Assembly (NCBI GenBank): GCA_030699905.1
Contig: JAUYKQ010000025.1
Span: forward strand, 1 to 55,206
Direction: 5' to 3'
From: a bacterium
GTDB taxonomy: Bacteria > Patescibacteriota > Minisyncoccia > Phycocordibacterales > GCA-002787175
Length of the DNA stretch: 55,206 nt
A model generated the notes under the pieces. That model saw nothing but the letters and a program-made list of their open reading frames with translations, made no database searches and was not told the origin of the DNA. The position numbers were made by a program, and so were the translations under genes. Shown here in pieces: positions 1 through 53,834 of the stretch; positions within the stretch are counted from its first letter, which is position 1; every line of letters begins with the position of its first letter.

Positions 1-22
1 TTCACATTCCATGTGATACGTA
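1..22 (-). repeat. edge of a further rRNA hairpin insertion (E0), truncated by the window
   Basis: tcacattccatgtgat is identical to the right edge of E3 (1836-1851) and close to that of E7. Confidence 0.5.
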
Positions 23-140
23 CCGCCGTTATTTGACCTTCTGGCATTGGTCAAGTGTCACCCCCTATACATCCTCTTTCGAGTTCGCAGGGAGCTGTGT
101 TTTTGATAAACAGTCGCCAGGCATACTTTAGCTGCGGCCC

Positions 141-287
141 AGCGCGCAAAGCGCGCAAATCACAAGTTTGTAAAGTAAAAAGTTTATCAAGTTTATCAAG
201 TAAGAACGGAAAATTTTGTTTTTACTTTATAAACTTTACAACTTTATGAACTTTCAACTTGATGAACTGCGTGCTTTGCACGCCAGG
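141..287 (-). repeat. rRNA hairpin insertion E1 (variable helix-63-like position of domain IV)
   Basis: Clamp gcgcgcaaagcgcgc ... gcgtgctttgcacgc encloses AT-rich arms of aagtttat/aagtaa words. Conserved 23S sequence resumes on both sides. Confidence 0.75.
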
Positions 288-820
288 CAGGCCTTATCGC
301 TAACTTACGGCCGCTTTTTTGCCGAGTTCCTTGGAGACCTCTCACTCGTTCGCCTTACTCTACTCGAGCAGATCACCTGTGTCGGTTTGCGGTACGGTTT
401 TCATATAACTGAAGCTTAGAGGATTTTCTCGGAAGGCTCTTCGCGAAGATTTTCCCCCGAAGGAGAATTTCTCCCGAAAACGCGCATGGTATTAAAACCA
501 GCTCTTCGGATTTTCCTGAAAAGCTACGCTCATTTCAAGAGACGACTAATCCAATAAAGCGCCTCCGCTTGTTTCCTTCGTCCCCCCATCGCATTATATG
601 AAAGTCACGGAATATTAACCGTGTGTCCATCGGGTCCGGCATTCGCCATCCCCTTAGGCCCGACTAACCCTTGGCTGACAATCATCGCCAAGGAAACCTT
701 GATCTTTCGGCGTGCGGGTTTCTCACCCGCATTGTGGTTACTTGTGCCAACATTCTTGCTTCCAAACGCTCCACCATGGGTCACCCCTTTGGCTTCATCG
801 CAGATTGGAATATTCTCCTA

Positions 821-950
821 CCGCGCCTCGCGCAAAGCACGCGAACGCCGATTGTCGCCGATAAGACGCCGATGTTCGCGGATGAAATTCATCCGCGTTA
901 ATCCGCGTTTTATCCGCATATTATCCGCGTTCTTGTGCTTTGCACAAGGC
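821..950 (-). repeat. rRNA hairpin insertion E1b (helix-45-like position)
   Basis: Clamp cgcgcaaagcacgcg ... cttgtgctttgcacaag. Arms are built of cgccgat words on the left and atccgcg words on the right. Confidence 0.7.
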
Positions 951-1189
951 ACCCTCAGTTTCGGTACTACGCTTAGCCCCGATTATCTTCGGCGCAAATT
1001 CTCTTAGCGAGTGAGCTGTTACGCTTTCTTTGAATGATGGCTGCTTCTGAGCCTACATCCTCGCTGTCTTTGAAAATTCACCACCTTGAGATGCACTTAG
1101 CGTAGATTTAGGGACCTTAACTTGAGATCCGGGCTGTTTCCCTTTTGACGAACGGAGCTTAGCCCCCGCCGTCTAACTGCCACACTCTA

Positions 1190-1317
1190 CCGCGCAAAGC
1201 GCGGAAGTTACAAGTTCATCAAGTTTGTAAAGTCTGTAAAGTTTGACGGGGAAATTCCCCTTCCGACTTTATGAACTTTATAACTTTATAACTTTATAAA
1301 CTCCGTGCTTTGCACGG
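1190..1317 (-). repeat. rRNA hairpin insertion E2 (domain II)
   Basis: ccgcgcaaagcgcgg ... ccgtgctttgcacgg clamp. Arms are caagttcatcaagtttgtaaag / ctttatgaactttataactttat. Loop is gacggggaaattcccc. Confidence 0.75.
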
Positions 1318-1696
1318 TTCTTCTGGTATTCGGAGTTTGATAGGTCAAGCGAGCTTTCGCCCTGTCTTAACCTTCCAGTGCTCTACCCCCAAAAGGAACG
1401 TGTGACGCTAACCCAAAAGCTATTTCGGAGAAAACCAGCTATTACCAGATTCGATTAGCTTTTCACTCCTTACCACAGGTCATCCGATAGTATTGCACGG
1501 CTAACCGGTTCGGGCCTCCATCCGCCTTTCGGCGAACTTCACCCTGCCCATGGCAAGCTCATCTGGCTTCGGGTCTTTAGTATACGACAAACGCGCTATT
1601 CACACTCGGTTTCCCTACGGCTCCGTGCTTTAGAGGCACTTAGCCACGCCGCATACTAAAACTCGTTGGCTCATTCTTCAATAGGCACGCCGTGAC

Positions 1697-1860
1697 CGTC
1701 GCATCACGCGAAACGCGAAATCAGTTTATAAAGTAAAAAGTTATAAAGTTCATCAAGTAAGAAAAGCGAGCCTCTAAAATCCGGCATCGGTTTTACTTTA
1801 TGAACTTGCAACTTTATGAACTTGATAAACTTAAATCACATTCCATGTGATGCGGCGGCT
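1697..1860 (-). repeat. rRNA hairpin insertion E3 (helix-25-like position)
   Basis: ccgtcgcatcac ... gtgatgcggcgg stem base, internal mini-hairpins gcgaaacgc and cacattccatgtg, and AT-rich word arms. 142/155 nt identical to E7 by manual alignment. Confidence 0.8.
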
Positions 1861-2163
1861 CCGACTCCTTGTAAGCATATGGTTTCAGGTCTATTTCACT
1901 CCCCTCACCGGGGTTCTTTTCACCTTTCCCTCGCGGTACTAGTTCACTATCGGTCTAAAGAAGTATTTAGCCTTACCGGTTAGTTCCGGCAGATTCCCCC
2001 AAGCCATTCGTGTCTTGAGGTACTCAAGAACAAAAACAAAGAAGTTATTTTGCTTTCATGTACGGGGCTATTACCCTCTGGGGCAGTTCTTTCCAGAACT
2101 TTCCATTAACAAAATAATTTGTAACTTCCCTCGTATAAATACAACGTTTTTGTCTTACAACCC

Positions 2164-2308
2164 CTCGCGCGAAGCGCGCTGAACTCGACACGAATCTACG
2201 AATAGAAGATGCGAATGACACGAATAAAATCAAGTTTTGTTAATTTTATTCGTGTCATTCGTTCTTTACATTCGTGTCATCAGTGTCATGTACAGTGTGC
2301 TTCGCACA
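2164..2308 (-). repeat. rRNA hairpin insertion E4 (uses the cgaata/gcgaat word family)
   Basis: cgcgcgaagcgcgc ... gtgtgcttcgcacaa clamp. Arms are acacgaatctacgaatagaagatgcgaatgacacgaataaaat / attttattcgtgtcattcgttctttacattcgtgt. Confidence 0.75.
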
Positions 2309-2352
2309 AGGTTTGGGCTTCTGCGCTTTCGCTCGCCGCTACTGACGCAATG

Positions 2353-2510
2353 GGCGCGCTCCGCACGCAAGTTACAAGTTGAAAGTTTGAAAGTTGAAAG
2401 TCAAAAGTTGAAAGTCAAAGAAGGACGGAGTCCTTTCTTCACTTTACGAACTTTATGGACTTTTTACTTTATAAACTTTTTACTCTATAAACTGCATGCG
2501 AAGCACGCTT
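2353..2510 (-). repeat. rRNA hairpin insertion E5 (domain I)
   Basis: gcgctccgcacgc ... gcatgcgaagcacgc clamp. Arms are made of gaaagtt/caaaagtt words paired to actttat/aacttt words. Loop is ggacggagtcc. Confidence 0.75.
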
Positions 2511-2552
2511 GTTTTCTTTTCCTCCAGGTACTGAAATGTTTTACTTCCCTGG

Positions 2553-2690
2553 GTGCGCTCGCGCGAAGCGCGAGCAAGTCAAAAGTTCATAAAGTTATAA
2601 AGTTTATAAAGTAAAAACAAAATCTGTCGTTCTTACTTGATAAACTTGATAAACTTTTCACTTTATAACTCGTTCGCGCTTCGCGCGTCT
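2553..2690 (-). repeat. rRNA hairpin insertion E6 (helix-9/10-like position)
   Basis: gcgctcgcgcgaagcgcgagc ... gttcgcgcttcgcgcg clamp. Arms are aaagttcataaagttataaagtttataaagt / acttgataaacttgataaacttttcacttt. Confidence 0.75.
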
Positions 2691-2847
2691 CGTGCAAGCA
2701 CGAGGGGTTTCCCCATTCGGACATCTCCGGATCAAAGGTTGCTAGGCACCTCCCCGAAGCTTATCGCAGCCAAGCTACGTCCTTCATCGCCTTCTTTAGC
2801 CAAGGCATCCACCATATGCTCTTAATTTCCTATTAGGAAACTTGTAT

Positions 2848-3646: not shown

Positions 3647-3697
3647 GAAAATTTCGGGATTTGATTGAAAATTGAAAATTGCAAAATTGAAAATTTT
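3647..3697. repeat. half copy of the gaaaattg word element
   Basis: gaaaatttcgggatttgattgaaaattgaaaattgcaaaattgaaaatttt closely matches the right arm of the 6121-6231 hairpin. Confidence 0.6.
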
Positions 3698-3756
3698 CTC
3701 TGTCATTCTGATGACGGAGGATTTAAAAATCCCTCCCCCTTCGGGTACCCAAAGAT

Positions 3757-4722: not shown

Positions 4723-4791
4723 ATAATGCGAACCTACGAACTATTCGAATACTACGAACAAGGAGAACGGTTTCCTTAGTATTCGCATTAT
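4723..4791. repeat. about 69-nt hairpin element (tacgaa/gcgaat words); inverted copy at 27598-27666
   Basis: gcgaatacta...tagtattcgc stem. rc differs from 27598-27666 at about 6 positions. Overlaps the stop codon of the 4788 gene. Confidence 0.7.
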
Positions 4792-5420
4792 ATTCTCTTC
4801 TCATTCAGCCCTATTTTATCCAAAAGCGTCTTATGCGGATAGTCCAAAATATCCCTGATTAACTTGTCATACATTCCAAGGCGGTATTTAAAGTCGTCAG
4901 TCGCAAAAACGGCGAAAGAAAGCTCTTTGCCTATCTCCGCCTCAATATCCTTGATAATGTTTTCCAAAACCTTGTCTTTAATGCGGTCTCCAACAACCAA
5001 AATATCCACTCTGCTGTCAAAATCCCGTATAAAAACTCCCGCCACTACGACAAGTTTAATCTTGCCGGCAAAGTTAAGTTTCCTGACAATCTCTTCGTTT
5101 TTTATAAGCACCGTATATATGAGGAGCTGTTGAAACTGCGAAAGATACGGAAACCCTTTTTTCAAAATCCAGCCATCTTCTCTTTTTTTCCTAAGAACTT
5201 TCTTATTTTCCTTTGTCTGTTCAACCGTCCGTGTAAACACTTTACCCGTTATGAGCCCTGACTTTTTGAGAACAAGAAGTTCGCGTCTGACGGCGCTATC
5301 TCCCAACTTGGCCCTTCGCGCGATATCCTTGCTTGAAAAAGCTGTTTTAGGGTTGAACAAAAACAATCGCATGATTTTTACACGCGCTTCGCTCCCGAAC
5401 AGTTTGCTTAAAATCTCCAT
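4788..5420 (-). CDS. winged-helix DNA-binding protein with small nucleotidyltransferase-like C-terminus
   Basis: ORF-track start (5474) is GTG; first ATG is at 5420 (MEILSKLFGSEARVKIMRLF...DIARRAKLGDSAVRRELLVLKKSGLI). C-terminal RVDILVVGD. Confidence 0.6.
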   Translation of the reverse strand: MEILSKLFGSEARVKIMRLFLFNPKTAFSSKDIARRAKLGDSAVRRELLVLKKSGLITGKVFTRTVEQTKENKKVLRKKREDGWILKKGFPYLSQFQQLLIYTVLIKNEEIVRKLNFAGKIKLVVVAGVFIRDFDSRVDILVVGDRIKDKVLENIIKDIEAEIGKELSFAVFATDDFKYRLGMYDKLIRDILDYPHKTLLDKIGLNEKRI

Positions 5421-5544: not shown

Positions 5545-5596
5545 GAAAAAACAGAAAGCGGGTTTGCTTCGCAAACCCGCTTTCTGTTGTTTTTAT
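5545..5596 (-). terminator. intrinsic terminator after rplL (bidirectional shape)
   Basis: acagaaagcgggtttgc-ttcg-gcaaacccgctttctgt 17-bp stem with flanking A/T runs. Confidence 0.8.
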
Positions 5597-5628
5597 ACAA
5601 TCCCCTCCGGTTCCGGTAACGACCCCCT

Positions 5629-6111
5629 TTACTTCAAAGTCACTTTTCCTCCCGCCTCTTCTATTTTTTTCTTCAGTGCCTCCGCCTCTTCTTTTTTCAT
5701 TCCTTTCTTTAGTTCCGAAGGCGCGGCATCCACCAAGTCCTTCGCCTCCTTAAGACCGAGACCGAGAACTTCTTTAACCGCTTTTATAACCGCGATTTTC
5801 TGGGCTCCCGTTTCCGTGAGTTCAACGTCAAAAACACTCTTCTCTTCCTTTGCCTCGCCTCCTCCTGCGGAGGCGGGCCCTACGGCCACAGCCGCGGCTG
5901 ACACGCCGAATTTCTTTTCCAATAGCTTCACCAGCTCGTTTAGTTCCAAAACCGACATGCTTTCAATCTGCTCAACCAGTTTCTTGAATTTTTCCGGAAT
6001 TTCCACGTTCTCTCCCGAATCTTTGGCTTCCGCGACCGCTTCCGCCACGACCGGAGCTTTCTCACCTTCTTTTTTTTCCTCTGTTTGAGGAACTGTTGTT
6101 GTATCTGACAT
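5629..6111 (-). CDS. rplL: ribosomal protein L7/L12 with about 40-aa acidic N-terminal extension
   Basis: ...[25 protein letters not shown]...[24 protein letters not shown]...GGKVTLK. Track start 6123 is TTG; first ATG is at 6111. Confidence 0.9.
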
Positions 6112-6120
6112 AATGTAATT

Positions 6121-6231
6121 CAATTTTCAATTTTCAATTTTGCAATTTTCATTGAATTTTTCAATATTCAATTTCCAAATTGGAAATTTCGGGATTTGAT
6201 TGAAAATTGATAATTGTAAATTGAAAATTTT
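6121..6231. repeat. about 110-nt hairpin of caattttc/gaaaattg words in the rplJ-rplL spacer
   Basis: Left arm caattttcaattttcaattttgcaattttc, perfect palindrome tttccaaattggaaa at the centre, right arm ttgattgaaaattgataattgtaaattgaaaatttt. Confidence 0.8.
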
Positions 6232-6260
6232 AATCTAAAATCTATTAATATTCTGGCGAT

Positions 6261-6752: not shown

Positions 6753-6760
6753 GAGAGTTA

Positions 6761-6833
6761 TCTCTAATCAATACATAATCAATCACTAATCAATCCCTAA
6801 TTAAGAACCGAATTTTCTCTAATCAGATTTAGA
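6761..6833. repeat. ctaatcaat / cccgaat word element upstream of rplJ
   Basis: tctctaatcaatacataatcaatcactaatcaatccctaatt...ttctctaatcagatttagag. Same words occur at 25967-26013 and 52788-52875. Confidence 0.6.
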
Positions 6834-7158
6834 GCCAGATTCGGGAGCGCATATTCGCATCCAATTCGGGATTATTCGAGTAAACACTTTCGACCTTTTT
6901 AAAGCCAAACTCCGTCCAGAAGGACGGAGCCAAATAGAAATCCGTGCAAAAAAGCACAGAAACCTCGGCAGGATCCTTGCGGATTATTAAAGCTTTCGCT
7001 TCCTGTCCCGAAGCCGACCTTTCGGTCAGCTTCGGGACCCCGACTAACGTCGGGGCTGTCTTTGGCCTTATGAAGGAAACATTACCAAAAACGCGCCCTT
7101 TTGGCAAATTTTGCAATAAGGGCTTTGCGTATTCTGCATTGCCAGCCGATGGGTGGGC

Positions 7159-7242
7159 GTCGCAAGGGAAGTTCCAAAAAAGTGACCGCTCCAAGGGCGC
7201 TTGCCTAGGGCTCAGTCACTTTGTTGGAACTTCCCTTGCGAC
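7159..7242. repeat. MITE-like palindromic element, copy A (diverged outer arms)
   Basis: gtcgcaagggaagttccaaaaaagtgaccgctccaagggcgcttgcctagggctcagtcactttgttggaacttcccttgcgac. Core is shared with 12323, 20038 and 33419. Confidence 0.75.
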
Positions 7243-12284: not shown

Positions 12285-12322
12285 GGTGGATAAACTTACA
12301 AATAGAGCGTACGAATAATTTT

Positions 12323-12451
12323 GAATTACGAAATAAGGCAGGCACCCCCCACGAGGAAAGTCACAAAAAAGTGACTAAGACCGGGCAAGCGCCCTTGGAG
12401 CGGTCACTTTTTGGGGAGCTTTCCGAGTGGGGGGCAGATGTTTCGTAATTC
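12323..12451. repeat. MITE-like palindromic element, copy B (inverted relative to copy D)
   Basis: gaattacgaaata...cccccacgaggaaagtcacaaaaaagtgactaagaccgggcaagcgcccttggagcggtcacttttt...tttcgtaattc. Confidence 0.85.
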
Positions 12452-12616
12452 AAAGATTTGACTAAATTGTAACCCGCCTATTGATTTAATGCCAACTTTT
12501 CGGGCGTAACCCCTCACACCTATCAGAAAGTGGTTTTATTCCTCCTTTTTAAAGGAGGTGTCACATTCTTATGTGACGGAGGATTTCCAAAATCCCTCCC
12601 CCCCCGCGTCCCCTCG

Positions 12617-19370: not shown

Positions 19371-19483
19371 CAGACCTGCTGTGTTGTAGCAATATCCCGA
19401 ATCAGACCCGAATTTAATTCGCGAATATTCGCGAAAAGAATTTAGAAAAAGATTTAGAGACATTACTGCGACACAGCAGATCT
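19371..19483. repeat. long hairpin with cccgaat / ttagag / cgcgaata words in its loop region
   Basis: cagacctgctgtgttgtagcaat (19371-93) pairs with attactgcgacacagcagatctg (19461-83). Confidence 0.6.
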
Positions 19484-20037
19484 GTTTCGACAAAAACCCG
19501 CTTAAGCCGCTTTTAAACTAAACTGCTAATACTAAACTAAACCCACTTCAACACGCACCGAGACCAAGGATGTTTTTATTACAAACTTGGTTCCGACGCA
19601 GTCAACATTAAGACGTGAAGCATATTCTTTCATTACAACCAAATAGGGACATTCTTCCTTGCTGTAAGTTTACGCCATATTCATATTGTCAACGAACCAT
19701 CACAACGCTGTCAGACCATGTAAACAAAAAACTCTCTCGTGTCAGTATTCCAAACATGACAGAGCTGTAAATACAGCTCCCGCATGTTTCAATGAATTAT
19801 ATACCCAGAAATATGGCCTGCCAACAAAATATAATGTGGATAACTTTCCAAAGCACCTCCCGTTTCCTCTTATTTGGTCCCAAAGGAGGGAAAAAGAGGC
19901 CAAAACGTTAGGGTTTCTGAAAAATAACCCATTAAAGCAGTATCGCATATAGGAGGCAAAGAGTCAATTTCAGGCCACTAAATGGGAGGGGGGAGCAAAG
20001 AATGAGATAGGAGATAGGATTTAGGAGATAGGAATTA

Positions 20038-20170
20038 GGAATCACGAAATACGGCAGGCACCCCCAAGAGGAAGTTGCAAAAAAGTGACCGCTCCAAGGG
20101 CGCTTGCCCGGTCTTAGTCACTTTTTTGCGACTTTCCTCTTGGGGGTAAAAAGCGGGTATTTCGTAATTC
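20038..20170. repeat. MITE-like palindromic element, copy C
   Basis: ggaatcacgaaatacggcaggcacccccaagaggaagttgcaaaaaagtgaccgctccaagggcgcttgcccggtcttagtcacttttttgcgactttcctcttggggg...tatttcgtaattc. Confidence 0.85.
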
Positions 20171-20231
20171 ACAGTAGTAATGAAGAATTTAAGGAGGAGA
20201 GAATTTGCAATTTTCTTGCCATTTTACGCGG

Positions 20232-23864: not shown

Positions 23865-24914
23865 ATGTCCAAAAAAATCTCACCGAAAAAAGAAACGACG
23901 GAAGAAGCGACGACTTCGCCGTCTTCCTCTCTGCCCCCTTCCCACAAAGAAGTGGACGAGGCTCTTCGCGCCATAAAAACCAAATTCGGAGACGACGCCA
24001 TAATGAAGCTGGGCGAAAAACCGAAGGTGAATGTAAACGCCATTCCCACCGGCTCTATCGGTCTTGACGCCGCTCTCGGAGTGGGAGGCCTTCCTCGCGG
24101 TAGAATTGTTGAAATATTCGGCCCGGAGTCAAGCGGTAAAACCACTTTAGCCCTCCACGTAGTCGCCGAAGCCCAGAAAAAAGGCGGAATATGCGCGTAC
24201 ATTGACGCCGAACACGCCATGGACCCGGAGTACTCCAAGAAGCTCGGAGTGAAAATAGACGAGCTTTTAATATCCCAACCGGATACGGGCGAACAGGCGC
24301 TTGAAATAGTGGAATCGCTTGTCAGGTCGGGGAAAATAGACGTCGTGGTCATTGACTCCGTTGCCGCTCTTACCCCGAAAGACGAAATAGAGGGAGACAT
24401 GGGGCAAAGTCATATGGGAAAGCAGGCGCGACTCATGTCGCAGGCCCTTAGGAAACTTACCGCTATCGTCGCCCGTTCAAAAACCATAGTAATATTTATA
24501 AACCAGATACGTATGCAGATAGGAGTTATGTTTGGTAATCCCGAAACGACCCCTGGCGGTAAGGCGCTTAAGTTTTACACATCCGTGCGCTTGGACGTTC
24601 GCCGTATCGCTCAAATAAAAAAGGGTGAAGAAATAATGGGAGGTCGTGTCCGCGTAAAGGTGGTAAAAAACAAAGTGGCCGCCCCGTTTAGACAGACGGA
24701 ATTTGACCTTATGTATAACGAAGGAATATCTCGCGAAGGCGAACTTATAGCATTGGGCGAAAAGTTTGGTCTTGTTCAAAAAAGCGGAAGCTCTTACTCC
24801 TATGGCGAAGTAAAACTCGGCCGCGGCTACGACTCTACTCGCCAGTTTCTTCGTGACAATGGAAAAATCGCGGAACAGATTCTGAAAGAAATTCTCGCGA
24901 AATTAAAAGAGTAA
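23865..24914 (+). CDS. recA: recombinase RecA
   Basis: [19 protein letters not shown] Walker [47 protein letters not shown]. Confidence 0.95.
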
Positions 24915-24960
24915 CACGATGCGAATTTACTAATTAGACAATTCGAATGACGCGAATAAA
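24915..24960. repeat. left arm of a cgaata-word hairpin that encloses the GxxExxY ORF
   Basis: cacgatgcgaatttactaattagacaattcgaatgacgcgaataaa followed by ATG. Complementary blocks are found in 25351-25399. Confidence 0.7.
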
Positions 24961-25347
24961 ATGGGAGAGGTAGAAAAAATTATACACAAAGAACTCTCGT
25001 ATAGAATTACCGGAATATTATTTAGAACACACAGAGAGCTGGGGAGAATGTGCCGCGAAAGACAATACGGAGATTTGTTAGAAACGCTATTAAAAGAGAG
25101 CAAACTTGAGTACGAGAGAGAAAAGGCGTTGCCGATGGAAAAGCTTGACCGACAAAATACTAATGTGGTAGATTTCTGTATCGACAATAAAATATTGTTG
25201 GATTTAAAGGCCAAGCCATTTGTAACGAAAGAGGACTTCTACCAGATGAGACGTTATCTTGAAGCTGCTGGCTATAATCTCGGTTTAATAGTTAATTTTA
25301 GGAACACCTATCTAAAACCTATCCGCGTCATAAATACGGTTCATTAG
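24961..25347 (+). CDS. GxxExxY-family protein (PD-(D/E)XK-like fold)
   Basis: 128 aa: ...ELGRMCRERQYGDLLETLLKESKLEYEREKALP...VDFCIDNKILLDLKA...RRYLEAAGYNLGLIVNF. Confidence 0.7.
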   Translation: MGEVEKIIHKELSYRITGILFRTHRELGRMCRERQYGDLLETLLKESKLEYEREKALPMEKLDRQNTNVVDFCIDNKILLDLKAKPFVTKEDFYQMRRYLEAAGYNLGLIVNFRNTYLKPIRVINTVH

Positions 25348-25350
25348 CAT

Positions 25351-25399
25351 CATTTTATTCGTAAATTCGAATCCCCTATCCGCAGATTCGCATCGAGTC
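25351..25399. repeat. right arm of the hairpin enclosing the GxxExxY ORF
   Basis: cattttattcgtaaattcgaatcccctatccgcagattcgcatcgagtc. attcgcatc pairs with gatgcgaat (24918-26); cattttattcg pairs with cgaataaaatg (24953-63). Confidence 0.7.
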
Positions 25400-25405
25400 A
25401 CTCCC

Positions 25406-25966
25406 ATGCTTGAATACAACGAAATCCTAAAAGGTAGATTTATCATTTTAGACAAAGCGCCGTATGAGGTTCTTGACGCGCGGATTTTTCGCATGCAACA
25501 GAGAAAACCGGTAAATCAGACCAAGCTCAAAAACATCATAACAGGCAAAGTTACCGAACGTACTTTCGGTCAATCCGAAAAGGCAGAGGAAGCTGATTTG
25601 GAAAAGCGGGAAATAAAATATTTGTACAACAACAAAGGACAGTGGTGGTTTTGCGAAGCCAATGATCCGAGCAAGAGATTTCAACTAAGCGAAGAGCTTT
25701 TGGGCCAGGGCAAAAAATTTCTGAAAGCAAACTCTCTGGTTACCGCCTTGTATTTCAACGAAGAAATAATAGGCGTCAGCCTTCCTATCAAAGTGGAACT
25801 GAAGGTTGTGGAAGCGGCTCCTGCTGTTAAAGGCAATACCGTGCAAGGAGGCACAAAGCAAGTTACGCTTGAAACCGGCGCGACTGTAAACACGCCGATG
25901 TTCGTTAAAGAAGGAGATGTGCTTCGGATAAATACCGAGACGGGAGAATACGTAGAACGTGTGTAA
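25406..25966 (+). CDS. efp: elongation factor P
   Basis: 186 aa, three-domain EF-P pattern: ...APYEVLDARIFRMQQRKPVNQTKLKNIITGK...VKGNTVQGGTKQVTLETGATVNTPMFVKEGDVLRINTETGEYVERV. Confidence 0.9.
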   Translation: MLEYNEILKGRFIILDKAPYEVLDARIFRMQQRKPVNQTKLKNIITGKVTERTFGQSEKAEEADLEKREIKYLYNNKGQWWFCEANDPSKRFQLSEELLGQGKKFLKANSLVTALYFNEEIIGVSLPIKVELKVVEAAPAVKGNTVQGGTKQVTLETGATVNTPMFVKEGDVLRINTETGEYVERV

Positions 25967-26295: not shown

Positions 26296-26448
26296 GTGTG
26301 TAGCGTGTAGCGTGTAGCGTGTAGCGTCAAAATCGTGTAGCGCGAAGCGTATAACGTGTAGCGTCAGAGTATTTCTTTTCCGGCGTTACACGTTACAAGT
26401 TACAAGTTTTAGATTATGGCGTTACAAGCTATACGTTACACGATTAGC
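26296..26448. repeat. about 150-nt hairpin of gtgtagcgt / acgttaca words in the ssb-rpsR spacer
   Basis: gtgtagcgt x4 on the left, gttacacgttacaagttacaag on the right. 26355-26404 is identical to 52126-52175 (50 nt). Confidence 0.85.
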
Positions 26449-26450
26449 GA

Positions 26451-26919: not shown

Positions 26920-27036
26920 TCGATGCTAATTTACGAATAAAAGATGCGAATATGGCGAATTTGGAATCCACGAATGATTTTCTGTCTTCATTTTATTCGC
27001 GTCATTCGTTCTTCTATTCGTATATTCGTGTCGTGT
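26920..27036. repeat. about 115-nt hairpin of cgaata/gcgaat words in the rpsF-ssb spacer
   Basis: cgatgctaatttacgaataaaagatgcgaatatggcgaatttggaatccacgaatg / cattttattcgcgtcattcgttcttctattcgtatattcgtgtcg. Confidence 0.8.
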
Positions 27037-27506: not shown

Positions 27507-27597
27507 GTTTGTTGAATCTTTACTTGTAATGCCGATACACTACCATTTTTGAGCATGGTTTGCAAACAGAGTATGTATAATCCTAATACTACGAACG

Positions 27598-27666
27598 ATA
27601 TGCGAATACTACAAAAACCGTTCTCCTTGTTCGTAGTATTCGCATAATTCGCAGGTTCGCATTATA
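27598..27666. repeat. about 69-nt hairpin element, inverted copy of 4723-4791
   Basis: atatgcgaatactacaaaaaccgttctccttgttcgtagtattcgcataattcgcaggttcgcattat. Confidence 0.7.
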
Positions 27667-28642: not shown

Positions 28643-28821
28643 GATTTATGATTTAAGAATTAGGAATAAGACAAGAAGAGTATAGAATAATCTTTGCGCC
28701 AAAAAAGACAACTTGCGTCATTTCTGCAAAAGCACATAGCTCTGGAGCATTGTCTTATTTGACTCGCATTGTAGATTCCACAAACACGGTTCTAAGAAAC
28801 AATGTTGGCTGTCCGCATTAA

Positions 28822-33374: not shown

Positions 33375-33418
33375 ATGAAAGAATGATTGAAAACTCCAAT
33401 ATGAACTTAAGATACTGT

Positions 33419-33553
33419 GAATTACGAAACACTTGCTTACCCCCCCACTCGGAAAGCTCCCAAAAAAGTGACCGCTCCAAGGGCGCTTGCCCGGGGCTCA
33501 GTCACTTTTTTGTGACTTTCCTCGTGGGGGGGCGTCTGCCGTATTTCGTAATT
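33419..33553. repeat. MITE-like palindromic element, copy D (most complete)
   Basis: gaattacgaaacacttgcttacccccccactcggaaagctcccaaaaaagtgaccgctccaagggcgcttgcccggggctcagtcacttttttgtgactttcctcgtgggggggcgtctgccgtatttcgtaatt. Confidence 0.85.
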
Positions 33554-33603
33554 AAAGATAAGATAAGCACAGATTAACATGGATTTAAAAACGGACAAAC
33601 ACA

Positions 33604-35602: not shown

Positions 35603-35659
35603 ATTTTTATTCTGCGGTTTTTCTTATGTTCCACGTTTCGTGTTTCGTGTTACACGATA

Positions 35660-52102: not shown

Positions 52103-52103
52103 G

Positions 52104-52212
52104 GCGTATAGCGTGAAGCGTGTAGCGTGTAGCGTCAGAGTATTTCTTTTCCGGCGTTACACGTTACAAGTTACACGTTGTATATTATGGCGTTACAAGT
52201 TACATGTTTTGC
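52104..52212. repeat. about 110-nt gtgtagcgt / acgttaca hairpin in the dcd-thyA spacer
   Basis: Shares a 50-nt identical core (52126-52175) with 26355-26404. Confidence 0.85.
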
Positions 52213-52215
52213 GAA

Positions 52216-52787: not shown

Positions 52788-52875
52788 TTCTCTAATCAAT
52801 CCCGAATCTCTGTCCCTAATCTTCTCGAATCCTCATTCGGGTTATTCGGGTTTTAAATTAGAGATTGATTAGTGA
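52788..52875. repeat. ctaatcaat / cccgaat word hairpin in the CYTH-dcd spacer
   Basis: ctctaatcaatcccgaat...attcgggttattcggg...attagagattgattag. Confidence 0.7.
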
Positions 52876-53610
52876 CTATTCAATAGTAAAAACTTTGTCC
52901 GTTCCATAATACTCCGCCCAGTGCTCATTGTAAAACTCAAACATCCGCTCCAACCTGTCCTGTGCGAGTTCTTCGACTCCGATTTCTCCCATAAAATCCC
53001 TTATTTCTTTTTCAATCATCTTTACATCATCGCCCTCTTTGCCTGATTTCTCAAATTCAGCCAAATAGCCGTAACCGGCATTTTTATCTATGGTTATCTG
53101 CATATTGTGGGTCTTGCTTTCATACTCCTCCCTCTCGCGCGACCACTTGGCTTGATAAGTAAGACCGGCATCCAAAAGGATTTTATCAAGTTCGTCTAAT
53201 GTTTTAAAAACTTCTTCTTGAAACTCAACCCTGGAAACGCCGTTTGCGCTTGTATCGTCGCCTACGGACGCTTTCATTACAAAGTACACTTTACCGTCCG
53301 CATCCCTCGTACGTATGGAAACCTTTTTTCCTTCCTCGCAAATCTTTTTAAGAGCTTCTTTTTTATCTTCGGCGACAAGAGGTCCGATAATTTCGCACAC
53401 CTTACTCAAGATTTTCCCCCCATTCGCATGAGCGGCATTCGTGGCTGCCGCAATCCCTTGCGCAGCTTGGGATGGCACATTGAAGTAATGATTGAGCTGT
53501 TTATGCTCCCCTTTTTTTGTGAGGGACTTATCCTTTTCGGCAAGCTTTTTTTTGGCCTCTTCGGCTCTTTCTTTGGAACCGAGAAGGGATTTTATTTCTA
53601 TTTCATACAT
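52876..53610 (-). CDS. CYTH-domain protein (CyaB/ThTPase-like triphosphate tunnel enzyme)
   Basis: ATG at 53610: MYEIEIKSLLG (ExExK motif). The upstream part of the track ORF is GC-rich read-through. Confidence 0.7.
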   Translation of the reverse strand: MYEIEIKSLLGSKERAEEAKKKLAEKDKSLTKKGEHKQLNHYFNVPSQAAQGIAAATNAAHANGGKILSKVCEIIGPLVAEDKKEALKKICEEGKKVSIRTRDADGKVYFVMKASVGDDTSANGVSRVEFQEEVFKTLDELDKILLDAGLTYQAKWSREREEYESKTHNMQITIDKNAGYGYLAEFEKSGKEGDDVKMIEKEIRDFMGEIGVEELAQDRLERMFEFYNEHWAEYYGTDKVFTIE

Positions 53611-53612
53611 AA

Positions 53613-53689
53613 CACGACACGAATAAAATACATGAGTATTATAAGCTGATTTGAGGGTTGTGGAAAGACTGGCACGACACGAATAAAAT
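53613..53689 (-). promoter_or_regulatory. 17-nt perfect direct repeats bracketing a TATAAT -10
   Basis: cacgacacgaataaaat at 53613-29 and at 53673-89. rc of 53638-43 is TATAAT. Confidence 0.45.
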
Positions 53690-53834
53690 TGAAGAAGGGA
53701 CGGGCTGGATTGCCACACTGCGTTCGCAATGACGGAGAGAGCGACAAAAGCAAAAGAGTGGATTGGCTGGTTTCCAACGCGCCACCCGTATGGCGTGTTG
53801 AAATGGCTGTATAGAGCGGTATAAATGGATAATA

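Follow-up and report, generated by a model that had tools for sequence, protein, structure and literature searches.

A GxxExxY-family nuclease gene enclosed by inverted word arrays between recA and efp of a patescibacterium: a candidate mobile cassette resembling rRNA intervening sequences

Closest Described Systems

In the intervening sequences (IVSs) with open reading frames (ORFs) that interrupt some 23S rRNA genes, such as those of Leptospira and Coxiella burnetii (S23p), terminal inverted repeats form a long stem that holds an ORF of ~120 amino acids (aa) in its loop. The same layout is found in the element described here, which lies between the recA and efp genes in a 55,206-nt contig of a groundwater patescibacterium of the Parcubacteria/Paceibacterota type (JAUYKQ010000025.1; this entire stretch is referred to as the window) and consists of a gene for a 128-aa protein of the GxxExxY (PDDEXK_3) family enclosed by two inverted arms built of short repeated words. 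We interpret it, with a probability of roughly 0.55, as a palindromic, IVS-like cassette that is mobile and has miniature derivatives, in which a minimal PD-(D/E)XK nuclease gene is surrounded by arms of two to four words each, (N4-5)CGAAT in the left arm and its inverse in the right one. Such word-arm cassettes apparently represent an undescribed family of small hairpin-forming selfish DNA; full-text searches of the literature retrieved no description of a bracket around GxxExxY or PDDEXK_3 genes.

The likeness to ORF-bearing IVSs extends to their sporadic distribution, to the long-suspected role of the ORF in mobility (an idea of Ralph and McClelland, as cited in PMC4990558), to the presence of an ORF-less member of the cassette family in a 23S hairpin loop, and to PF05635 (23S_rRNA_IVP) genes outside rRNA that are bracketed likewise. 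Questions about the origin and mobility of ORF-bearing rRNA IVSs go back to the 1990s (PMC4990558). In Coxiella, the IVS encodes the S23p/IVP protein; it has a 28-bp terminal stem that is cut by RNase III and, like the cassette, contains short tandem words before the ORF start, namely, three GACAGAT heptamers (PMC4990558). The differences are that the IVS ORF encodes the four-helix-bundle protein S23p whereas the cassette ORF encodes a predicted PD-(D/E)XK nuclease; that the ORF-bearing cassette is located between protein-coding genes and not in rRNA; that the classical IVS sites are 23S helices 9, 25, or 45 whereas the ORF-less insert described below is at large subunit (LSU) rRNA positions ~274 to 297; and that the cassette arms are regular arrays of 9- to 10-nt words with conserved termini. 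A survey of rRNA insertions in the Candidate Phyla Radiation (CPR) reports LAGLIDADG, GIY-YIG, and 23S_rRNA_IVP ORFs and refers to short ORF-less insertions as “uncharacterized”; neither term searches of this survey nor its section on distribution turned up inverted repeats, hairpins, or PDDEXK (PMC11270868).

A similar partnership of repeat and gene is seen in repetitive extragenic palindromic (REP) sequences and REPINs with their REP-associated tyrosine transposases (RAYTs): a gene present in few copies lies between inverted copies of the palindromic repeat of its own genome, numerous repeat units without an ORF are dispersed over intergenic spacers, and repeat and resident gene match genome by genome. 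However, RAYTs are IS200/IS605-type Y1 (HUH) transposases whereas the cassette protein is a PD-(D/E)XK protein of ~125 aa and, in contrast to the REP/RAYT system, cassette arms overlap the coding sequence and cassette units also enter rRNA and coding genes. Transposable elements of the miniature inverted-repeat type (MITEs), such as Correia/nemis and enterobacterial repetitive intergenic consensus (ERIC) sequences, and Rickettsia palindromic elements are also short palindromic units with terminal inverted repeats (TIRs) in operon spacers; Correia transcripts form hairpins that are RNase III substrates (PMC10969869), and Rickettsia palindromic elements are inserted in frame in protein-coding genes, as is the case here for a galactokinase gene (see below). 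The cassette family shares with MITEs the terminal inverted repeats and the multiple dispersed copies but has no visible target-site duplication or known DDE transposase parent and, unlike MITEs, has an ORF-bearing parent form that encodes a predicted nuclease. Homing endonuclease genes, free-standing or borne by introns and including those of the PD-(D/E)XK type, such as I-Ssp6803I, resemble the cassette in being small nuclease genes within or between conserved genes (here, nusG-rplK, recA-efp, and rRNA) in the same orientation and apparently also in being present or absent at the same site, but they are not known to have an inverted-repeat bracket or miniature hairpin families elsewhere. The cassette is of the same kind as the known IVS-like and REP/RAYT-like palindromic elements. 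If GxxExxY genes do encode the resident nucleases of hairpin cassettes, IVSs, MITE-like hairpins, and in-frame palindromic insertions would join one framework.

A GxxExxY Gene in the Loop of an Inverted Repeat

The nuclease ORF (positions 24961 to 25347 of the plus strand, with the stop codon TAG at 25345-47) is preceded by a recA-like gene (23865-24914) and followed by an efp-like gene (25406-25966), all three on the same strand. An earlier interpretation of this stretch, made without database searches (hereafter, the sequence-only reading), had assigned the product to GxxExxY proteins of the PD-(D/E)XK type, and the hidden Markov models (HMMs) bear this out: the protein matches TIGR04256 (GxxExxY) with 68.5 bits (cut-off, 35) over residues 11 to 122 and PF13366 (PDDEXK_3) with 70.6 bits (cut-off, 22). 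Besides TIGR04256, PF13366 was its only family match, and the protein was not recognized as a Y1/HUH (IS200-IS605-like) transposase. Residues Glu33, Asp71, Asp81, and Lys83 are invariant across 33 homologues, and Tyr36 is also conserved; the four invariant residues align with Glu28, Asp68, Glu78, and Lys80 of the classical GxxExxY proteins in a profile-profile comparison (hhalign, 99.2%), so the D...(D/E)xK nuclease site is intact. The eponymous G-x-x-E-x-x-Y motif is incomplete, with Met30 in the place of its Gly residue (LGRMCRERQY versus LGNGFLEPVY), and this position is occupied by Phe, Met, Tyr, or His throughout the patescibacterial clade. The replacement of the glycine is a clade variant, and the HMM-based membership in the GxxExxY family stands.

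The AlphaFold2 (AF2) model of the protein has a predicted local distance difference test (pLDDT) value of 87.8 and the element order alpha-alpha-beta-beta-beta-alpha-beta-beta. Its Foldseek matches in the PDB are all PD-(D/E)XK nucleases, although weak ones (E values from 5e-3 to 0.5), and include Cas4, lambda-exonuclease-like proteins, SSO0001, Hjc, tRNA-splicing endonuclease, and the R2 restriction-like endonuclease (RLE); a sequence search of the PDB retrieved no solved relative. The sequence and the model together predict a minimal PD-(D/E)XK nuclease. One survey gives the function of PDDEXK_3 as “Unknown” (PMC3424549), and searches of defense-system libraries yielded no PADLOC match and a single weak PHROG of unknown function. 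No further GxxExxY copies or pseudogenes were detected in the window by tblastn, and a scan for promoters and terminators gave nothing above shuffles. GxxExxY/PDDEXK_3 is a very large family; if its members are indeed resident cassette nucleases, the family gains a testable substrate, its own arms, and may offer compact sequence- or structure-specific nucleases for study.

The inverted arms that bracket this ORF are ~50 nt long and consist of CGAAT/ATTCG words. The left arm (5' terminal inverted repeat; positions 24909 to 24963, plus strand) has an outer tip, GAGTAAC, that overlaps the recA stop codon TAA (24912-14), followed by the terminus CGATGCGAAT (24917-26), whose type, CGAYRCNAAT, is present in 36 of 81 related cassettes, and by the words CGAAT (24922-26), CTAAT (24930-34), CGAAT (24944-48), and CGAAT (24953-57); it ends in the ATG of the ORF (24961-63). 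The right arm (3' terminal inverted repeat; 25348 to 25403, plus strand) comprises CATTTTATTCG (25351-61), ATTCGAAT (25365-72), the terminus ATTCGCATCG (25386-95), and the outer tip AGTCACTC, which extends to 25403; the efp ATG is at 25406. Three pairs of blocks are complementary: GATGCGAAT (24918-24926) with ATTCGCATC (25386-25394), ATTCGAAT (24941-24948) with its counterpart at 25365-25372, and CGAATAAAATG (24953-24963) with CATTTTATTCG (25351-25361), the last pair in 11 of 11 positions. All three had been noticed in the sequence-only reading, which placed the outer right block at 25387-95 instead of 25386-25394 but was correct in putting the start codon in the left arm and the beginning of the right arm, with its innermost block at 25351, 3 nt past the TAG. 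The outermost inverted repeat, GAGTAACACGATGCGAAT (24909-24926) versus ATTCGCATCGAGTCACTC (25386-25403), is 89% complementary, extends further than the sequence-only reading had noted, and spans the recA stop codon, and the entire left arm matches the reverse complement of the right arm in 41 of 55 columns.

When the two arms are joined by a short linker, the RNA fold has an energy of -43.9 kcal/mol (z = -7.35; 0 of 200 shuffles) and the DNA fold one of -24.4 kcal/mol (z = -5.9), which agrees with the proposed location of the ORF in a hairpin loop between recA and efp. The predicted minimum free energy structure of the whole 506-nt transcript retains the arm-arm stem, with the ORF enclosed and the AUG paired, and the 128-aa ORF has the best flanking inverted-repeat score among the window ORFs of 50 to 220 aa. 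Complementary ends, a stable stem, and an ORF in the loop are the features by which an IVS stem is recognized, and such a stem is predicted for the recA-efp cassette as well as for the 23S insert. A chance or low-complexity coincidence might be suspected, given that the blocks are short (8 to 11 nt) and the spacers AT-rich, but it is already refuted by the z score and shuffles above, by the word arrays of the window (arrays of at least two words: 5 of CGAAT and 9 of ATTCG, versus ~0.5 and ~0.6 in shuffles), and by the repetition of the pattern in ~150 independent loci.

In read-through transcripts, pairing of the arms would leave the ORF in a closed loop, and the paired insertion could then act as a self-contained hairpin, similarly to an rRNA IVS, which would make it tolerable between tight co-oriented genes and in rRNA. 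The same pairing would bury the start codon of the nuclease and might keep its expression low.

Arms Follow the Gene across Patescibacteria

The arms were compared in 81 patescibacterial GxxExxY loci, with the flanks defined as the 80 nt before and the 130 nt after the conserved core. Other GxxExxY copies proved to have arms, too, as the sequence-only reading required. Homologues with 60 to 73% identity occupy different genomic contexts yet share the same word flanks, with the layout CGACACyAAT..CGAAT..CGAAT..[ORF]..ATTCG..ATTCG..TAA-TTAGTGTCG; for example, loci L001, L003, and L004, from three contexts, have CGACACyAAT..ACGA-ATG ... TCG-TAA-TTAGTGTCG in common. Upstream flanks of the 81 loci contain 182 CGAAT words versus 24 ATTCG words, and downstream flanks contain 224 ATTCG words versus 19 CGAAT words; the respective densities are ~28 CGAAT words per kb upstream and ~21 ATTCG words per kb downstream, compared to ~1 per kb elsewhere in these loci. 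In some clades, CTAAT, CAAAT, or CCGAAT words take the place of CGAAT. Arms and ORF have thus been passed on and moved as a unit.

The two arms of one cassette are, moreover, held mutually complementary. The mean energy of arm-arm duplexes is -43.2 kcal/mol, versus -25.0 kcal/mol for shuffles and -33.3 kcal/mol for arms taken from different loci (p = 4e-11), so that the arms of each element match beyond the shared vocabulary. Among the 36 elements with the canonical ends CGAYRCNAAT and ATTNGYRTCG, the variable YR pair agrees between both ends in 25 (expected, 10.2).

Start and stop codons are inside the arms in most copies and outside in others; in the window copy, the arms lie outside the ORF. 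In most copies, the words are translated, the N-terminal M-N-x-N-D-T-N being aatCCGAATgatACGAAT and the C-terminal P-I-R-V-I-R-x-N-S being ATTCGtgtcATTCG..AATTCG. With start and stop codons falling at varying positions relative to them, the arms are a feature at the level of the nucleotide sequence. If the cassette interpretation is correct, it also accounts for misannotations, with the MNxNDTN and IRVIRANS tails being translated repeat words and gene calls being fused to what lies downstream.

In a blind screen, all 645 ATG-initiated ORFs of 80 to 200 aa from ~165 loci were ranked by the score of their flanking inverted repeats; GxxExxY genes filled all of the first 12 ranks and roughly 70 of the first 80. 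The arms go with the GxxExxY gene and not with the insertion site. This bears on the possibility that a free nuclease gene entered the loop of a native recA-efp hairpin that had grown by slippage or self-templated repair. Nearly every window spacer has a word hairpin, in several vocabularies, the recA-efp spacer of a relative (L088) has a hairpin of a different kind, and ORF-less hairpins place the ATG of the ORF exactly at their apex, all of which would fit such a capture. It is, however, largely refuted, and very improbable, given that the gene is surrounded by the same termini and words in unrelated contexts and in many families, that the words are coding sequence at both ends in most copies, that the bracket sets GxxExxY and IVP ORFs apart from the rest of the 645 small ORFs, and that GxxExxY genes of the spirochete type are bracketed as well.

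In some cassettes (those of L042, L043, L052, L056, L060, and L079), a stop codon is missing and the reading frame continues across the right arm into the next gene. In L042 and L043, this gene is pilin-like and is joined just before the prepilin motif (K/R)GFT(I/M)VELLV, so prepilin peptidase could cut off the nuclease as a giant leader; the downstream part in L060, judged by eye, resembles dihydrofolate reductase. Many database “proteins” of 270 to 650 aa are fusions of a cassette with the downstream gene.

ORF-Less Miniatures

Copies of the arms with no ORF between them are found in the window and elsewhere. The first is a 132-nt insert (approximate positions 2170 to 2301, minus strand) in the 23S rRNA gene, with the plus-strand reading CGACACGAAT cta CGAAT agaagatg CGAAT gaca CGAAT aaaa / loop / tttt ATTCG tgtc ATTCG ... 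ATTCG tgtc. The insert takes the place of the 5-nt loop at the apex of a domain I hairpin (positions ~274 to 297 of the Rfam LSU model); with its flanks (window positions 2150 to 2320), it folds to -80 kcal/mol, and over a stretch of 40 nt it shares 95% identity with the right arm of the GxxExxY cassette from another metagenome-assembled genome (L012). The second occupies the rpsF-ssb spacer (26921 to 27033, minus strand) and reads, on the minus strand, CGACACGAAT ata CGAAT agaagaa CGAAT gacg CGAAT aaaATG aagacagaaaatc ATTCG..ATTCG..ATTCG..ATTCG taa ATTAGCATCG. It retains both the start-codon block, CGAATAAAATG, and the stop-codon block, ATTCGTAA-ATTAGCATCG (ATTCGTAA...GCATCG), and therefore looks like an internal deletion. 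When the recA-efp cassette with its ORF deleted is aligned with these two sequences, the mean column identity is 70%, the ends common to all three are CACGAyrCGAAT...ATTnGyrTCGAGT, and the ORF ATG falls exactly at the apex of the ORF-less hairpins. The suggestion that one element family occupies both the recA-efp spacer and the 23S gene is thus upheld.

Arms specific to a given genome are shared between ORF-less and ORF-bearing copies in L068, L044, L013, and L012, where an ORF-less copy with near-identical arms lies no more than 2 kb from the GxxExxY gene; this supports the earlier proposal that ORF-less hairpins are miniature relatives of the cassette. A galactokinase (GHMP kinase) gene (L142, positions 143 to 1471) has CGAAT words inserted in frame at two places, at one of them as a full hairpin, and these insertions are translated as ..TNTNRTNDTN.. 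and ..TNTNSTNNTNNKVNTDGRINEHESHKSNEYSYNSSNS.. (TNTNSTNNTNN...). ORF-less miniatures with genome-specific arms gather in operon spacers, an rRNA loop, and, in other genomes, in-frame sites of protein-coding genes. Tandem miniature hairpins of ~60 nt (three CGAAT and three ATTCG words), separated by similar spacers of ~45 nt, are seen in L159 (1900 to 2290), and in L112 (80 to 560) an arm has grown to 18 words beside classical GxxExxY genes.

Insertion into 23S rRNA raises the possibility that GxxExxY is an endonuclease acting on RNA, a dedicated enzyme for IVS removal that would recognize word hairpins in rRNA and mRNA, cut them out, and be encoded within one of its own substrates. The PD-(D/E)XK fold includes the tRNA-splicing endonucleases, which are among the weak structural matches, the arms in the 23S gene must be either tolerated or removed, and the protein is strongly conserved. 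Such a role is nevertheless quite unlikely: the best structural matches (Cas4, lambda-exonuclease-like proteins, and Hjc, all weak, with E values of at least 5e-3) are DNA nucleases, host RNase III is the enzyme that removes known IVSs (PMC4990558), and three other inserts in the 23S gene of the window use a different vocabulary. The sequence-only reading had also stated that 23S IVSs of other bacteria encode both four-helix-bundle and GxxExxY proteins; the former is documented (PMC4990558, PMC11270868) but the latter is not confirmed, with no GxxExxY gene found within 23S rRNA genes in the ~165 loci sampled.

Genomic Context and Mobility

The nearest homologues of the window copy (69 to 73% identity) are located at nusG-rplK, beside a gene for a VTT-domain protein, and in a cluster resembling type IV secretion system (T4SS) genes; since the closest homologues are in other contexts, relocation also occurs. 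The best database relatives of the window RecA are 86 to 89% identical. One of them, from L088 (86% identity), is encoded in a region syntenic with the window (ftsK, a glucodextranase-B-like gene, recA, efp, and rpsR/ssb/rpsF), in which the recA-efp spacer is only 106 nt long and contains a different hairpin (GTTACA words) and no ORF, although this relative is too distant for defining the exact insertion boundaries. The cassette is therefore present in one and absent from the other at the syntenic recA-efp site, and this comparison of relatives, proposed in the sequence-only reading, came out in favor of that reading. RecA ends in ..LKE* in the window and in ..LKENM* in L088, i.e., is two residues shorter in the former; the recA stop codon lies within the outer inverted repeat, as though the insertion had replaced the last recA codons.

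One site, nusG-rplK, is shared by 20 of the 81 cassettes. Among these copies, the mean identity of the nuclease proteins is 0.60, equal to that of the adjacent L11 fragment, and the correlation with NusG divergence is also similar (rho = 0.34 for GxxExxY and 0.37 for L11), which indicates strong purifying selection on the GxxExxY protein and a good deal of vertical descent. Neighboring genes are co-oriented with the cassette in 70 of 72 loci upstream and in 60 of 71 loci downstream.

Co-orientation within operons, protein conservation on a par with L11, and a strong predicted RNA stem that sequesters the AUG could all be accommodated by an RNA-level device only, in which the arms are a processing or insulating hairpin, i.e., an RNase III-type substrate that frees the nuclease mRNA from the recA-efp transcript or silences it, the protein is a nuclease of use to the host with no connection to the repeats, and the miniatures are regulatory or terminator-like hairpins. 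The tolerance of the same arms in 23S rRNA, the RNase III-cut stem and the heptamer words before the ORF of the Coxiella IVS (PMC4990558), and the RNase III sites in Correia TIRs (PMC10969869) point the same way. We consider this explanation unlikely as a complete one, because it leaves unexplained both the identical arm pairs at new loci, in-frame sites, and the rRNA gene and the fact that arms follow the ORF between contexts; in addition, the complementarity is strand symmetric, with A.C mismatches on the sense strand exceeding G.U ones. An RNA-level function is compatible with a DNA-level element and can add to it rather than replace it.

With regard to the mobile cassette itself, the nuclease could recognize the word arrays, or the hairpin or cruciform formed by them, and make a DNA break that would spread the cassette and, in trans, the miniatures. 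Such a layout would be similar to that of RAYT with REP/REPIN or of an autonomous element with its MITEs. Movement may be by cut-and-paste, homing, or template copying, and one conceivable route is homing into junctions between conserved housekeeping genes. The action of the nuclease in trans on the arms is what we infer from the association between the two.

In Logan contigs from three groundwater runs, the cassette was covered at ~20x depth and no joint that skips it was seen; the runs that contain the window sequence are DNA metagenomes only. No Shine-Dalgarno sequence or shared motif was found before start codons window-wide, and the idea that the right terminus serves as a translation signal for the downstream gene was dropped, as there is no start-codon motif in the genome. 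In several window genes, a TATAAT-like box lies no more than ~10 nt from the ATG, so their mRNAs may be leaderless or have very short leaders.

GxxExxY Arms in Other Phyla and a Second Type of Cargo

Arms are also found around GxxExxY genes beyond Patescibacteria. A plasmid-borne copy from Treponema saccharophilum is bracketed by CACACGGATTCG..GCAAAATCT / AGATTTTCCGAATCCGTG, and in 75 classical GxxExxY metagenome loci the flank complementarity is 25.9, versus 16.6 in cross-locus comparisons (p = 1e-8), with 10 of the 75 exceeding the 99th percentile. The arms of the classical loci are arrays of 9- to 10-nt words, such as GTCCGCGGATTACGCGGATTTACACGGATT and CCCACAGATTACACAGATTACACAAATT; the Treponema-type arm words are CACGGAT and CACAGAT. 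In some loci (L112), a complete hairpin is found to each side of the gene. Not every copy is bracketed, since a Persicobacter copy (L093) has direct AATCC words on both sides and no inverted arms. The patescibacterial profile matches 4,357 clusters at 50% identity, and in the Treponema-type word search at least 7,994 candidates, of 8,000 scored, had E values of 1e-5 or less.

The few ORFs other than GxxExxY that had strong flanking repeats in the blind screen encode four-helix-bundle proteins of the PF05635 (23S_rRNA_IVP, bAvd-like) family outside rRNA, namely, in L073 (4091 to 4441; E = 1e-32), inside a TTGCTGGTA/TACCAGC hairpin; in L084 (4455 to 4811; E = 3e-41), inside a CTAGCCA/CTAGTGG hairpin; and in L045 (3632 to 4012; E = 1e-14), inside a CCAAT/ATTGG hairpin. 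These vocabularies are unlike the CGAAT-type GxxExxY arms of the same three loci. A wider and more tentative proposal is that IVSs are the visible part of cross-phylum word-hairpin cassettes, in which two small proteins of unrelated origin, the GxxExxY nuclease and the 23S_rRNA_IVP/bAvd-like protein, are each encoded inside, and specify or propagate, their own family of hairpin repeats of 7- to 10-nt words that colonize rRNA loops, spacers, and coding genes. If true, this would be a REP/RAYT-like partnership with entirely different proteins, and it would explain the origin of rRNA IVSs and of many rRNA “expansions” of the CPR.

Several of these observations weigh against the interpretation of the recA-efp insert as a mobile cassette driven by its nuclease. 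The presence of the nonnuclease IVP in analogous hairpins means that the architecture needs no nuclease, and several more word-hairpin vocabularies without a visible ORF occur in the genome (see below), so that word hairpins could arise by a general process. The two best miniatures of the window both have CGACAC ends and are more alike than either is to the resident cassette with its CGATGC ends; their source may therefore be another copy or self-propagation. As the divergence of the nusG-rplK copies tracks that of NusG about as well as L11 does, many copies may be old and vertically inherited and not actively mobile. No recently duplicated ORF-bearing copies were seen, and no target-site duplication was seen in the window, L001, L003, L010, L012, or L013, which is a weak test given the lack of empty sites from close relatives. 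Selection on the stem as sense RNA gained no support: on the sense strand, G.U-type mismatches between the arms (104) are fewer than A.C-type ones (167), which does not support RNA-specific covariation, and sense and antisense duplex energies do not differ. Finally, to our knowledge, there is no precedent for a 128-aa PD-(D/E)XK protein acting as the sole transposase.

Other Word Copies and Hairpins in the Window

Additional CGAAT-type copies include an array of four CGAAT words followed by ATTCG/ATTAG words upstream of rplJ (6753 to 6885, minus strand); a short CCGAAT/ATTCG word palindrome, cccgaatcagacccgaatttaATTCGCGAATATTCGCGAA (19398 to 19431); a small CCCGAAT/ATTCGGG hairpin flanked by CTAATCAAT words (52793 to 52852) in the spacer between a dCTP-deaminase-like gene and its neighbor; and two solo right ends, ttttATTCGTGTCGTG, 60 nt apart (53600 to 53700, minus strand), the second directly before an ATG. 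A CGAAC/CGAAT-word subfamily (ATAATGCGAACCTACGAACTATTCGAATACTACGAACAAGGAGAACGGTTT..TAGTATTCGCAT) is represented by two near-identical copies on opposite strands (4727 to 4795, plus; 27590 to 27660, minus). Three ORFs are probably spurious: a 121-aa one with no family match (6829 to 7194, minus strand) that overlies the word array upstream of rplJ, one (5564 to 6088, plus strand) antisense to the L7/L12 gene (5629 to 6123, minus strand), and one (2237 to 2614, plus strand) within the 23S gene.

The 23S gene (1 to 2835, minus strand) has three more long inserts (~2560 to 2680, 2353 to 2513, and 1700 to 1832) that form word hairpins of the ATAAAGT/ACTTTAT type, and the stretches containing them fold to -62 to -69 kcal/mol; the last of these inserts probably occupies the site in helix 25 (LSU model position ~583). 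The same vocabulary reappears in the 5' flank of the 23S gene (2880 to 2990). At 26375 to 26450, 52103 to 52215, and 35603 to 35659, GTGTAGCG is repeated and followed by repeats of CGTTACA(C/A)G, forming hairpins with consistent G.T pairing on the plus strand. A larger hairpin repeat of ~150 nt, GAATTACGAAATA..GGCAGGCACCCCCCACGAGGAAAGTCACAAAAAAGTGAC ... GTCACTTTTT..TTTCGTAATTC, is present in three copies (~12300 to 12460, 20060 to 20200, and 33400 to 33560) and matches no Rfam family at the gathering threshold. Low-complexity spacers are made of AATTGAAAATTG words (3669 to 3700 and 6120 to 6250) or TAGGAGATAGGA words (20010 to 20050 and 28643 to 28670). Nearly all intergenic spacers of this genome consist of a word array or a word hairpin.

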